A DNA stretch of 47,525 nt, the filler included, from Catajapyx aquilonaris (lineage: Eukaryota): the NCBI GenBank assembly GCA_000934665.2. It is 2 parts of 2 records of this genome, joined end to end, with 100 filler letters (N's around TTAATTAATTAA, not from the genome) between each part and the next. Parts side by side here need not be neighbours in the genome. Positions count along the whole stretch, not along the records: positions 1 to 23,712 come from JYFJ02005638.1; 1 more part is not named here. One strand, given 5' to 3'. The notes below the pieces were generated by a model, which was not told where the DNA came from, searched no databases, and saw nothing but the letters and a program-made list of their open reading frames with translations. The position numbers were made by a program, and so were the translations under genes. Position 1 is the first letter of the stretch, and each line of letters begins with the position of its first letter. Positions 4,701-16,700 of this stretch are shown here, piece by piece.

Positions 4701-7700
4701 TTGGCACACTTGACATCTGTGATGAGAGGGACGGAATAGTCCACAGCCAAACGCCGAGTGCGATAACCTTGAGTGACAAAGGATGACACCCTCCTATTAC
4801 CACCATTACGCATGGGGAGATTTATGACCAGATCAAACTTCTTGTCTGCCACATAATCAGCCATGTTGTTCAGCTGCCCCTTTGTAGTGTTCTCACCAAA
4901 GTTCTCAAACGCCCACTCCACAGGCTCAACCTAAAAATGGTTCAGAGAAGATCAGTGTCTTATTACAGTTATGTAGGTTGTCTAGCCATTCTTAAGATTT
5001 AATTTTCCCACTACCATCTCACTGCATTGCACTACTGTCACCTGCAATTATTGACATAAGAGCCATTCATTCATTCTTGTGAAAAGGAGCACAGTGGATT
5101 TGGTCCTGGACTTTGTAAACGGTAAAAAATTTAAAATGCACAGCAAGCTTTTGAAAATGCAGCACTCTTTCAAATGATAGGCTGAATCCCAAAAGAACTG
5201 ACAAAAATGTCGGTGAAAATTTAACTCTTGCAGATATACAAAATGATGCTTGGTCAATCGTTGGCATATTTTTTTCCACTGTAAAGATATGAAGCTAGAG
5301 AGTACATGTCTCAGAAATGAAAGTAGGTGATCTCTGGAGCATAATATTAGGCATGAAACCACAATATATTGCAGCATCGAATAAGAAATAAATCTGTCTA
5401 AAAAGTAGAAAATTATTATTCAGTTGGCTTTTAATTACTTGATTAATTAATGCATCCATCTTCTGAACAAGAAGGATATTGGAACAGTGGAAAAGTCATT
5501 ATTGGTGTATGGATCTTAAAATGAAAGCAATTGCTCTATATCTAATCATCTTGTACGTAACACACTTTGATTGACAATTAGGTTGGCCTTGTCCATCCTT
5601 TTCATCAAGATAAATTTGTGATGAGGTGTCCAATATGTCACAATTAACTGTCAGACTGTAATATTGAAATGGTAAAGGTACAAATGAAACGAATGAATGT
5701 CTTCAAAAAGTGCATTTCAGTTCACCAACAACTGATAAACAGATAAATTACAGTAATGCCTTGAATGAAGTTTCTTCTATTCCAGATCAGATTTATTTTA
5801 GTGGCTGCACTTAAAAGCCGGAACTGTCAACTGACGTCATCCATTCCCATTTGCTCTCCCAATGTACAACCAATCTCACCTAACAGATGGCATGGTGCAG
5901 GAACTTTATCAATTAGCTCTCACTGCTTCCAAATGGTGATAAGATAGTGAGGGATTATAGCTCTTGTGGGTAAAAGAATGGCCTTTTCACCATTGGATAC
6001 CTGAAGGATAGTGAGCACGCATGGGCTGGCTGCAGGAAACAAGCAGTTGACCTTCAGGCAATTTGGGTGCCAGATCAAATTGCATGTTTTCCGCCTTCAG
6101 ATAATGCCTAGAATAGGCTAAGACAACTACTTGAGACCTGTGATTCTAGTGATACTGAGATTCCACAAGCAAAATGGGGAATGCTTGCTACTCGGGTGGT
6201 TCAACATTGGATCCCATGCTTGAAAAACATAAGCAGGATGGTGCCTTAGAGGAATTGCCTGAACACATGCAAAATGATGCAGGACCTCTAGATGACATAG
6301 ACCAGTTCATTGAAGACGTACAGGAGAAAAATCTAGAACAACTTCGGTTGGACTTCAAACACAACTACGAGAGGTTCTTGCTCAATAACATTCTCTTCTC
6401 TGTGCAATTCTTCACACACTATGAGAGGTGAGTGCCAAAATAGCAGCTGGGCATAGCAATAGTACATAGTATCATGAGCAGTGATTCACCGGAGATTCAG
6501 TCACACAATAACAATGTCATTTGCTGTTACACAATTTGATTTTATGCACTGTGATTTATCTTGAAGGGTATTAAAAATTTTCAATGGGGAAGTAGCCTTC
6601 ATTTTGGAAACTACATAATAAATTCGCCCATATTTTTTGGATTTTTTTTGCATATTCCGTTTTAAGATATCAGTTTCAGTTCCGGAGTAATTGGGGTTTT
6701 TATGTAGGCTAATGGTGACGTCACTGTTAGCCTAGAAAATGTTGACGTCACGCGAAGTGAAATGAACGCAAAAATGGTGTTATAGAACGCGCCCCGTCAT
6801 TGTTGTAAAATGCTTCGCTGTTGTTAGCAACCGTCCCATTCCGTGAGCAAGATAGCGGCCGGGGCGCGTATTTATTCCAGGCCGCTCAAGCCGCTTTGTA
6901 CGTGGCAGTGATGCCACCAGCTCGGAAATATCTGTCTCCCGAATTAGGCACATTAAGGCCCCCCCTCTCCACCTCGATGGCCTACAGCCGCCTTGCGAAT
7001 GCTTTCCGTCGTGTCCGCGGTTAATTCAAAGTCAAATTCCTCATATCTCGCAGTCAACCAGGCATTTCAGTGTACCCCTTCGATTGGCTGCTGCGTTTTT
7101 CCCGCCAATTTTGAAGACACTTTTAAATGTGACGTAATTTATCCAGTAATGCCATTTTGATGCAACAGAGTGATGGAATGTATGTTTACAGGCATGGGCT
7201 AGCTAGTTATGAACAAAAATCCCAAATCCCAGACCAAGGCTACTTCCCCATTGTCTGACACCTACTGTTACCACAATTTAACCATTTAAAATATTGTTTA
7301 GTACTCTGCAATGCAATGTGTGATTCACAAAAACCAAGAAATTAATTTTGATGTTGTTGTAATGATTTGCACTTCATTTAGCGAGTTATCTTACCATTAT
7401 AACAACACACTGTGAAAGTTTCCAATAATAAAAATCTTAAAATAAACTAAACTGTGAATCTTGGAATGTTTGCGTAATACAATAGCACCATTTATAAGCC
7501 ATGCCATTACAACATTATACCATGATAATATGCAAATGCACACTTTTGCACACCTACAGTGATCCCAAATTGATTAATATAGTTATTTGTTGACACTAAG
7601 CTGCTTATTTTGTAGCAGTTACTTTTGCATGGTTACCTTTAAGGGCTAATATTACATCCAACTTAATCATCCATTCAGGCTCTGAACTGCAAAGTTATGT

Positions 7701-13700: not shown

Positions 13701-16700
13701 ACAAAAGACACGCCAGCAGCGGACATCAGTTGAATCTGTCAATTTTGATGCAAAGCTACAACCTCTAAATCCGATGAGGAAGAAGCTTGTGCTAGAATTC
13801 TTTGCAGAACACTTTGTAAATATGGCAAAGAAATCTAATGAGTTCAGAGCAACAGCGCAAAGTGCCATGTACCTGCAGCATGTGAGTAATTTAGCCCAAC
13901 TGATGGAAGACGAGGGGTACCATGAGCCAGCTGTTGAGGTGAGGGCTGAAATAACAAAAATCAGTGCGGCCAACCCACATGCATACCGAGAATACATTCA
14001 TGCCAGATGGGGAATAAATGAAGCCCTAATGAAGGATACCAACTGGGAACTCAGGATGATGCCTCTACCGCAAGTTCCAGTGTCTCCAGCAGGAAAGTCT
14101 CCAAAGACACCAAAGACACCATCGTCACTGGGGGAGAAATCCCCATGGTCACCAAAGACACCTAAAACTCCAGATCAGAAGTCACCAAATGCCCCTAAAA
14201 CACCAGAGAAGAAGTCACCAAATAGACCCAACCCAACCAGCCAGAAACTTGAGAAGTCATCCAAATATATCAAAGCAACAACCAAAGCAGTGATAGAATC
14301 CCCACCAAAGGACCTTGACAATCCGGATGTGCCCAGGAATCCACAAGTTGAATTCATCACTCTTGAGGAATGTGAAGGTGAATCCACGGACATGTAACAT
14401 TCCCACAAAAAAATTACGCTTTTCCTTCGGGTCCCCAGTTTTGACACCTGTACAATCTATGCAAATTGAACACTAAATATGACTCACCTGGAGCCCATGT
14501 GCAATGCAGAAGTCTGCAGTTCCAATGCTGGCATACAACTTGTAACCCATACCTTCCAGTGATCGAACACTGGCAAGCATTTCTTTCTTGTGCTGCAAGC
14601 AAATAAATCACTTAAAAACATGTGGGTCTGTCACTATGATAAAGTACTGTAGGTATTAAGTGCAACTAACCACGTAGCATCCAAAGGACAGTAATATGCT
14701 ATTGTTGGGTATTTGAAAACCAGTGCTCATCATAGCCTTCAAGTAGGCCTCATAGCGATTCTCTCCAAAGCAAGCTACTTCACCTGTAGATGCCATTTCC
14801 ACACCAAGCATCACATCAGCTCCTGAAGAGAGTGCATAAAATTCAACATGGTAAGAGCTCAGTGACTTCCTTTTCCTGGTGAGGGTTTGTACAGTAATTA
14901 CATTAACGGTACAAAACTATGGAAATGACATGTCCCTTTCCACTGCGTGCAAAGCTAACTCTTTTTTGTAACAAAAATACGGTAACAATCGGTAACAATG
15001 CGAGCCCTTGGCGACTACGTAAACAAACTCGCGTTTGCATGGACAGCATATGGGGATTCAACATGTCCACGCTTCTGCGGCCGTACGGCCACAAAAATGG
15101 AGCAATGGACACAAAAATTACACCAAAAAATAGGACATGATCTGGTGCAGGGCACCTTCGGCGTCATTTTACCATTTTCGGCCTAGAAGTGACCTTTTCA
15201 TCGAGTTGAAGTGAAAGGAAAATGGCGTTCCCGAAAAGCCCATTTGAATAACATGGCGGCAGGAACGCGACAAATTCGGGAACGCTTCGGCGCCCATATG
15301 TCCACAATTTTAATGCAATCATATCGAGTATGGTACCATAGTAAAGGCCAAACCTTTCTGCAGGGCACCTTCAGCGTGATTTTTCAGATTAACCGTCCGT
15401 TTCGCCACAAAAAATAAAATTCCCTCAAAAATGCGCCTACCGTATTTGTACTCATGCGCCCCCTTAAACAAAGTAATTTCAGCAGTGCTCCTATTTCTAC
15501 AGAATTGTAAAAAGCAGGACTGGTATTTCAAATACACTCGATTAACAGCTGGTGTACATTTTGCCTGCTGATCGAAAGGTTTCTGTTTATTAATTTGTAC
15601 CTGAAGTGCCTATATCATGCAAGCCCCTTATGTATGCAGTCCCTTACCAATTGCACATAGCTGGTATGCAAAAAAGGGCATTTTAGCAATATAAAAACTT
15701 CCTTGGTTTATGGAAGTGGACCACCCTGGTACTACGGGACGCATAAAGAATGTCCGGGGAGATTCTTCGTTCAGCCTGGCGGAGGCAAACCATTGCACAG
15801 GTGTGTACACACACACTTGTGTGTACGTCCATGCTTATCTGCCGAGTTTTTTCCCTCCTCCCTTAGCTACCCAGGTGCAATGGGTTGCCTCCACAAGGGT
15901 GAACGAAGAATCTCCCCGGACATTCTTTATGCGTCCGATAGTACACTTTCAACAGCTTTCAATAGTTCAGTGTAATTTAATTACAAGAGAAGGGTGCAAA
16001 TGAGTGTTCTTCAGTTGGCTGCAAATATATGCAAGCAATTCAAAATGTGTCCAATACAGGTGAAAAGTTAGATCAGTGGACATTTTGGTATTCTCATGAC
16101 TCATAGACTATTCTCACATCTGTAGAATGTTCCCATGTTGGAGGTTCCCAGGCTCAAACAGTTGCAGAAGTGGATGGAAAAACCACTTCCTGAGGATATG
16201 ATAATAGATCACCACATTGGTGCATGATCACAAGTGGGCATGATTTCACATATTTTGAATTAACATATGACACCCTTTCCTCTTACTTGACAAGTACAGG
16301 AATGGCAACTTGACACATAGAAACCATTCACATAGCACAACGGTTCATGAAGAGATCATGTTCCTATAGTTATAGTGGTTGACAGTAATTGTGTCAACAA
16401 CTAATAAAATTGAAATACATAATTGGAACATGACCTAATCAAGAAACTACCATTCCATGTGAATGGATCAGCAGGGTGCAAATTGATCTCTATTAATTTA
16501 ATCTACTGTACCATGGAGCCTCTAGATCTAGAATGTCTGCATGTCTAATGCTTCCTTCTAAGATTTACTTAAAAACATATTCAACTAAAAAAAATGATAT
16601 CACTCAATTAAAAAATTGCCATTGTACACGGGTATTATAACACTTCCTTGCACACCATGTCCCACTAAATATATTTTAGGACCTACCTGCAAGTCTTGAA

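Follow-up and report, generated by a model that had tools for sequence, protein, structure and literature searches.

A Mab-21 gene lodged within the intron of a large host has a precedent in another subfamily: passages of Nikolaidis et al. 2007 (PMC1784063) place MAB21L1 in an intron of NBEA and MAB21L2 in an intron of LRBA, across animals. A 47,525-nucleotide stretch of DNA (filler included) from Catajapyx aquilonaris (assembly GCA_000934665.2), made of parts of two records joined with 100 filler letters and with positions 1 to 23,712 coming from JYFJ02005638.1, was analysed here; it is referred to as the window, and all positions are counted along it. Its plus strand carries a five-exon gene of the Mab-21/cGAS fold superfamily (6174–14397), which lies antisense within an intron of CAD (4931–14487) and is called the nested gene below. 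The nested gene is intact, transcribed and protein-coding, its position in CAD is shared with cladocerans, and its product most likely uses the cGAS fold without catalysis. This nesting in CAD is distinct from those in NBEA and LRBA.

Five scattered stop-to-stop open reading frames (ORFs) were identified on the plus strand (6159–6431, 10095–10502, 10883–11623, 11829–12536 and 13015–14397). Direct reading of the splice sites joined them into a single coding sequence (CDS), as the preliminary description had proposed, and gave 3222 nt encoding 1073 aa, with the terminal TAA as the sole stop. All four introns are bounded by GT..AG with a pyrimidine-rich tract ahead of each acceptor. The chance of 1073 open codons, computed from the base composition of the region, was ~2e-30, and the longest ORF elsewhere in the window was 245 aa. 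GC content was 43–46% in the exons of the nested gene vs 28–39% in its introns.

Exon 1 (6174–6427, plus strand as are all exons of this gene) holds the ATG at 6174, the N-terminus MGNAC... and the first helices of the fold, and ends at the donor AG/GTGAGT; its N-terminus aligns with Daphnia MGNNCC and barnacle MGVGCS. Exon 2 (10184–10491; acceptor TAATTAG/A, donor CCAG/GTCAGC) encodes strands of the N-lobe and the degenerate active-site region, and exon 3 (10899–11560; acceptor CTCAAG/GT, donor CAG/GTAAGG) the end of the N-lobe and most of a long disordered insert, whose equivalent segment in the model of the Daphnia orthologue has a predicted confidence (pLDDT) of <50. The insert ends in exon 4 (11847–12532; acceptor TTTCCAG/ACA, donor CCAAG/GTAATG), which continues into the second half of the nucleotidyltransferase (NTase)-like core. 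Exon 5 (13086–14397) carries the Mab-21_C lobe, an extra helical bundle, a disordered KSPKTP-rich tail and the C-terminus ...STDM, and closes with the TAA at 14395–14397. The Mab-21_C domain (HhH/H2TH-like, PF20266) lies at ~13180–13404, corresponding to residues 56–130 of the ORF 13015–14397 when counted from 13015 (13252–13476 if counted from 13087). At least part of the 5' untranslated region (UTR) is placed at 6100–6173 on the plus strand, and a putative 3' UTR at 14398–14607, ending at the first AATAAA (14602–14607) and running antisense across the CAD exon at 14488–14592.

Two acceptors with good pyrimidine tracts, 13029 and 13086, lie 57 nt apart ahead of exon 5, and use of the former would add 19 residues between the lobes. 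Although in frame, 13029 was rejected, as orthologues have no insertion at this junction, and 13086 was preferred; alternative splicing of exon 5 between the two sites is possible.

The spliced product was compared by local blastp with its orthologue in Daphnia pulex (LOC124192028, P0009 in our set). Collinear matches were obtained over model residues 1–236 (31% identity; residues 1–248 of P0009) and 436–919 (30%), and these blocks run across junctions 1/2, 2/3 and 4/5, leaving out only 3/4. Two motifs said to be rebuilt across junctions were found again in this comparison, RPG/FVRLRC aligning with Daphnia FPGWVMLRC and [11 protein letters not shown] with LSFGAAHETLL of the orthologue. The first two intron positions, at ~aa 91 and ~aa 193 of P0009, are common to the window and to a Daphnia-like contig described below (L002), while the window gene has introns at two further positions that are absent from the Daphnia-like loci.

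Further evidence came from the run X1, of unrecorded kind, which consists of unstranded contigs. Its contigs join 14592 to 14671, 14821 to 16686 and 3825 to 4365, with ends CT..AC, as expected for CAD introns removed, and X1 therefore holds spliced sequence of the source organism. Contigs with 0 differences covered the nested gene at 6100–6279 (a 180-nt contig reaching upstream of the ATG), 12173–12486, 13201–13448 and 13439–14592, that is, on exons 1, 4 and 5; several parts were left uncovered, and no conclusion is drawn from this. The nested gene is real because the open frame with its splice sites, the homology across junctions, the shared intron positions and the exact-match contigs, all independent of one another, agree. 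Within intron 1, the stretches 6633–7165, 8343–8717 and 9071–10004 were covered by many X1 contigs with many differences, at a summed depth of up to several hundred; no Pfam family was found in the ORFs scanned there, and these stretches probably represent dispersed repeats or fragments of transposons.

The host intron has a length of 9557 nt and is on the minus strand (4931–14487). Its sites were read directly, with the donor CAG/GTGAGT after 14488 and the acceptor TTTTTAG/GTT before 4930, which bears out the exact bounds and the antisense nesting claimed beforehand. The upstream CAD exon (14488–14592, minus strand; HKKEML...AHGLQ) is joined in X1 to the next one (14592 to 14671), and the downstream CAD exon (4688–4930, minus strand; VEPVEW...KLLVE) encodes the end of the MGS-like domain (Pfam MGS, E 5.6e-07). 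The intron thus splits the MGS-like domain of CAD; the start of the dihydroorotase (DHOase) domain follows exon 4688–4930, and exons farther upstream carry the CPSase large-chain domains. The statement that the nested gene lies wholly inside the intron stands for the CDS and is less sure for the transcript, as the first AATAAA (14602) lies beyond exon 14488–14592.

The preliminary description had further suggested a conserved host/nested pair, and such a pair was encountered in a single metagenome scan for synteny, which returned only two contigs, both Daphnia-like (L001 and L002). On L002, the orthologue of the nested gene starts at 1898 on the plus strand, and a CAD exon starting VESIEW lies on the minus strand (1308–1144 and 854–747), with 69–75% identity to the window exon that starts VEPVEW at 4930. 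On L001, the orthologue ends at 1309 and is followed on the minus strand by a CAD exon ending ...HGI (1626–1525; 71% identical to 14488–14592), with its stop ~210 nt from this exon, and the next upstream CAD exon (1844–1698) is 88% identical to its counterpart in the window. In the window and in both contigs, the orthologue thus lies antisense between the CAD exons ...HG[LI]Q and VE[PS][VI]EW, with identical intron, orientation and tight 3'-end spacing. The nesting is orthologous synteny between the species of the window and cladocerans. At L002:3769–3799, tblastn places two pieces of the Daphnia protein on overlapping DNA (aa 193–435 and aa 426–790, in differing frames), which suggests a 1–2 base indel in the metagenome contig and not an intron.

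An earlier reader had placed the uncharacterised Drosophila gene CG15865 at or within rudimentary, which is presumed only. CG15865 ('Dm4') is listed as a divergent Mab-21/DANGER member in PMC1784063, and its map position was not found in the passages of PMC1784063 and PMC8582830 or in 12 of the 17 supplements of PMC1784063.

To place the protein within the superfamily, exon 5 was compared with the Pfam model Mab-21_C (PF20266) and matched with E 4.5e-12 and 46.4 bits (vs a cut-off of 24.1). The same model was above its cut-off in all ten orthologues scanned. The expected match to Mab-21 was thereby obtained for the C-terminal domain. PF03281, the model of the NTase core, had no match at E≤1 in the window exons, scanned one by one. 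Among the ten orthologues, four matched PF03281 at E≤0.01 and one above the cut-off, always in the second half of the model. The claim of a complete gene of the Mab-21 superfamily is borne out by the Mab-21_C match together with the collinear orthologues.

Word-based and full HMMER searches returned family proteins of ~800–1100 aa. The profile search found 3328 proteins at E≤0.001, of which 144 reached E≤1e-30, and the best 150 of the 3328 were considered. About 30 clusters were named, and all of these are from Pancrustacea, either crustaceans or insects. The crustaceans comprise four species of Daphnia (D. pulex LOC124192028), the barnacle Amphibalanus (LOC122363198), the mantis shrimp Oratosquilla (LOC143040632), the shrimp Palaemon, the copepod Tigriopus (LOC131884408) and the ostracod Cyprideis. 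The insects comprise stick insects, a katydid, a cockroach, locusts (Schistocerca LOC126260419), a mayfly, a louse, beetles, a butterfly and sawflies (Neodiprion LOC107219529), and among the dipterans sand flies, mosquitoes (Aedes AAEL009477), midges, Bactrocera and Drosophila persimilis (LOC6598265). These relatives are annotated as 'uncharacterized' or as 'Mab-21-like HhH/H2TH-like domain-containing'. Identity to the window protein was 26–36% among the named orthologues, and no protein searched exceeded 36%. A quick maximum-likelihood tree of 44 rows (the window protein and 43 of 185 proteins, picked as full-length or top-scoring) placed the window within the crustacean set (SH-aLRT 95, 16 rows), beside the branchiopod clade (84). 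Within the Mab-21/cGAS fold superfamily, the window protein belongs to a pancrustacean branch that is uncharacterised and already in databases.

Literature searches found no paper on the LOC124192028-type family or on the CAD nesting. Of four orthologue ids searched in the literature, AAEL009477 was the sole hit, in a mass spectrometry table of the Aag2 secretome, where it is entered as 'N/A' (PMC6478881).

The fold was assessed by comparing the family profile with solved proteins and by AlphaFold2 (AF2) models. The profile matched coral Sp-cGLR1 (8gjy) at E 6.9e-34, MB21D2 (7lt1) at 1.4e-26, MAB21L1 (5eog) at 9.5e-26 and several entries of cGAS at ~1e-10. The AF2 model of the Daphnia orthologue had a mean pLDDT of 72 and a predicted TM-score (pTM) of 0.72, with residues 41–210, 370–710 and 746–860 confident and 211–366 and 882–1008 disordered. 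This model aligned with the whole cGAS catalytic domain over its residues 73–673 (Z 25.4; 312–327 of ~355 residues; rmsd 3.3–3.8 A), and its top rows in Foldseek were cGLR, MB21D2 and MAB21L1 (2.5e-13 to 8gjy). From this alignment, the N-terminal exons correspond to the N-lobe and exons 4–5 to the remainder. For the window protein, a model of exon 5 reached a mean pLDDT of 76.7 (residues 1–160 and 188–310 confident), and the best 50 Foldseek rows were all chains of Mab-21 fold, at E ≥1.7e-3, weak values because only the C-lobe is present in this model. The 1073-aa product is thus predicted to form a full two-lobed cGAS/Mab-21 fold interrupted by a disordered insert of ~270 residues, with a further helical bundle and a disordered tail behind it. 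ESM Atlas matches to the C-terminal bundle scored ≤0.80 and serve as leads only.

Active enzymes of cGAS type depend on three acidic residues and a Gly-Ser (GS) loop. The GS-loop columns of the family alignment, after the first strand, hold P in 23 and D in 22 of 34 rows, and the window has T-G. The strand expected to hold the acidic dyad reads P/A/T, then R (25 of 34), then Y/F. An acid-x-acid pair was absent from N-lobe columns 95–211 when two columns two apart, both acidic in ≥60% of 33 orthologues, were searched for, and the window has a single E in this range (column 149). The third-acid column, which aligns with an Asp of 8gjy in the HMMER alignment, holds E in 26 of 33 orthologues; in the window, the 20 residues that precede the conserved W-P include neither D nor E. 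Exon 4 of the window retains all of the near-invariant residues of the family (W, P, R, W-P and W). Because the structural residues are kept and the catalytic ones lost, the fold is under constraint and the catalytic site is not. The term cGAS-like, as applied to the gene at the outset, does not hold in the sense of an enzyme, as the GS loop, the acidic dyad and the window's third acid are all absent; the likeness is one of fold only. Judged by these residues, the window protein most likely puts the cGAS fold to a non-catalytic use.

Both protein ends carry recurrent motifs. Of 38 full-length relatives, 30 begin with MG, in many cases with a Cys close by, and four more have an internal M-G within 25 residues, which suggests a mis-called start. 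The C-terminal pattern [ST]x[LIVMF] was found in 22 of the 38 (vs 3.5% expected from composition). The window has both, with MGNAC... at the N-terminus and ...STDM at the C-terminus. N-terminal Met-Gly is a mark of lipid anchoring, and an S/T-x-hydrophobic end is a class I PDZ ligand. The two ends suggest a lipid-anchored, PDZ-binding membrane adaptor, a role that we infer from motifs.

Within the otherwise poorly conserved insert, one patch is conserved (window 11950–12010, model residues ~445–465). It is acidic and rich in Ser and Tyr, followed by P-R-P-L, with the family consensus S-S-x-Y-x-Y-x-x-I (Daphnia SSDEDYDYTSI..PRPL; window [15 protein letters not shown]), and may serve as a short linear motif for docking or phosphorylation.

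Taken as a whole, we consider it rather probable that the locus holds an intact Mab-21 gene whose active site is dead, whose product acts as a membrane adaptor and whose nesting has been kept by entrapment. With the nucleotidyltransferase site lost, the protein would make no nucleotide signal. By its N-terminal Met-Gly and its C-terminal S/T-x-hydrophobic motif, it would instead be held at the membrane as a lipid-anchored, PDZ-binding adaptor. A gene inside an essential host gene would not easily be moved without breaking the host, so that entrapment would keep the nesting in place, and this would be the simplest reason for its conservation in CAD.

Several points weigh against this view. Tyr occupies position 6 of the window protein, where most relatives have S or C, and Tyr at this position misfits the usual myristoylation pattern; the C-terminal motif is absent in 16 of the 38 relatives. 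Strand order and a register-free scan, in place of a structural alignment at residue level, served to locate the catalytic columns, and the sequence profiles could be aligned with solved structures over no more than the second half of the fold. The evidence for the whole-protein fold comes from the ~30%-identical Daphnia orthologue, exon 5 being the part of the window protein that was modelled. None of the four introns of the nested gene is bridged by a read or contig listed in X1, and the four junctions accordingly rest on sequence and homology. Conservation of the nesting was seen in one other lineage only, the Daphnia-like one.

An active cGAS-like receptor, or a sensor that binds nucleotides such as pyrimidine nucleotides, would make use of the complete cGAS-type fold, and the solved relative that the profile matches most closely, 8gjy, is indeed a coral cGLR with activity. 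Most orthologues (26 of 33) keep Glu at the third acidic position, and the title of entry 5eom says that MAB21L1 binds CTP, so that ligand binding without catalysis would be possible in this fold. However, the GS loop and the acidic dyad are missing family-wide, the window has lost the third acid as well, and the Pfam model of the NTase domain stayed without a match at E≤1 in the window exons and passed its cut-off in one of ten orthologues; we regard such a function as highly improbable. That the locus is no working gene, being either a copy in decay or a set of ORFs chained by chance, is barely credible. An identity of only ~30% to the nearest relatives and the lack of splice-junction reads in X1 would fit this idea, but it is contradicted by an open frame with a chance of ~2e-30, by near-invariant fold residues that are all kept, by conserved N- and C-terminal motifs and by exact-match contigs on three exons from a run that holds spliced sequence.

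A coupling of the two genes was also weighed, in which the nested transcript, antisense over a CAD exon and its donor, modulates the splicing or level of CAD, or the reverse, and the pair is kept for this reason. Only 90 nt separate the nested stop codon from the CAD donor, and neither AATAAA nor ATTAAA occurs between this stop and 14602, past exon 14488–14592; the nested 3' UTR probably overlaps that exon in antisense. The stop on L001 is likewise near the same CAD exon, and intron and orientation are kept in both lineages. The X1 contig at 13439–14592 runs unbroken from nested exon 5 through the 3' flank into the CAD exon and continues through the CAD joints 14592 to 14671 and 14821 to 16686, so that over 13439–14821 antisense transcript overlap or an assembly merge is possible. 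It gives a hint of overlap only, as the X1 contigs are unstranded and a contig across two genes need not be a single transcript. Since entrapment accounts for the conservation by itself, coupling seems unlikely to us. Bolder still would be an ancient pancrustacean functional unit, in which the antisense transcript tunes CAD and the membrane-tethered product may bind a pyrimidine nucleotide, by analogy with MAB21L1 and CTP; were this true, a signalling scaffold would be tied to pyrimidine supply, a prospect we hold to be quite improbable. Entrapment of an intact gene for a non-catalytic membrane adaptor is the reading preferred here.

Outside the nested gene, ORFs of ≥60 aa on the rest of the plus strand were scanned and held no Pfam family, and an Rfam search gave 0 matches. 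Upstream of the CAD exon at 22657–23379, the N-terminal part of CAD was not found; this part comprises ~370 aa, with the small chain of CPSase and the greater part of the GATase domain. Beyond this exon lie runs of N (23713–23756 and 23769–23812) and then an ACBD6-like gene on the same (minus) strand as CAD, with its ACBP domain at 25717–26253 and ankyrin repeats at 24863–25183. Either the missing 5' exons of CAD are inside the gap, or the scaffold was mis-joined at the gap.

The nested gene in itself is a fairly ordinary uncharacterised crustacean and insect gene, and its pairing with CAD is old. The analysis provides a first description and a clean gene model for a family that is labelled only 'uncharacterized' across crustacean and insect genomes, those of mosquitoes and fruit flies included. 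This family combines a complete cGAS-type fold, a degenerate active site and a split core with ends that resemble membrane-anchor and PDZ-ligand motifs. Should the nesting extend to insects, it would be a useful marker of deep microsynteny and, in Daphnia or Drosophila, a tractable case in which to see if antisense nested genes influence an essential metabolic host.

Among its relatives, the window gene is closest to the orthologues of LOC124192028 type, with which it shares the domain order, the N-terminal MG, the split core, the [14 protein letters not shown] motif, the C-terminal helical bundle and the S/T-x-hydrophobic end; it differs from most of them in having lost the Glu that they keep at the third catalytic position. 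With cGAS and the cGLRs (Sp-cGLR1 8gjy, Cv-cGLR1 8gjw, mouse and human cGAS) the family has the bilobal fold in common, whereas its core is split by a long disordered insert and additional parts are present at both termini. Human MB21D2 (7lt1) and MAB21L1 (5eog/5eom), the next-best matches by profile and Foldseek, are alike in a likely non-catalytic use of the fold, and we know of no enzymatic activity shown for either; unlike the window family, they are single-domain proteins of ~360–490 aa that lack the insert and have neither a lipid-anchor motif nor a PDZ-type end. In its genomic setting, the locus adds to the pairs MAB21L1/NBEA and MAB21L2/LRBA a second example of a Mab-21 gene that is locked in a host intron. 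In those pairs, too, as far as the passages of PMC1784063 go, a gene of the superfamily sits in an intron of a large host and the pairing is conserved in animals. MAB21L1 and MAB21L2 belong to another subfamily, measure ~360 aa, have neither insert nor lipid-anchor motif and reside in other hosts, and the same passages give them as intronless in vertebrates, whereas the window gene has five exons.

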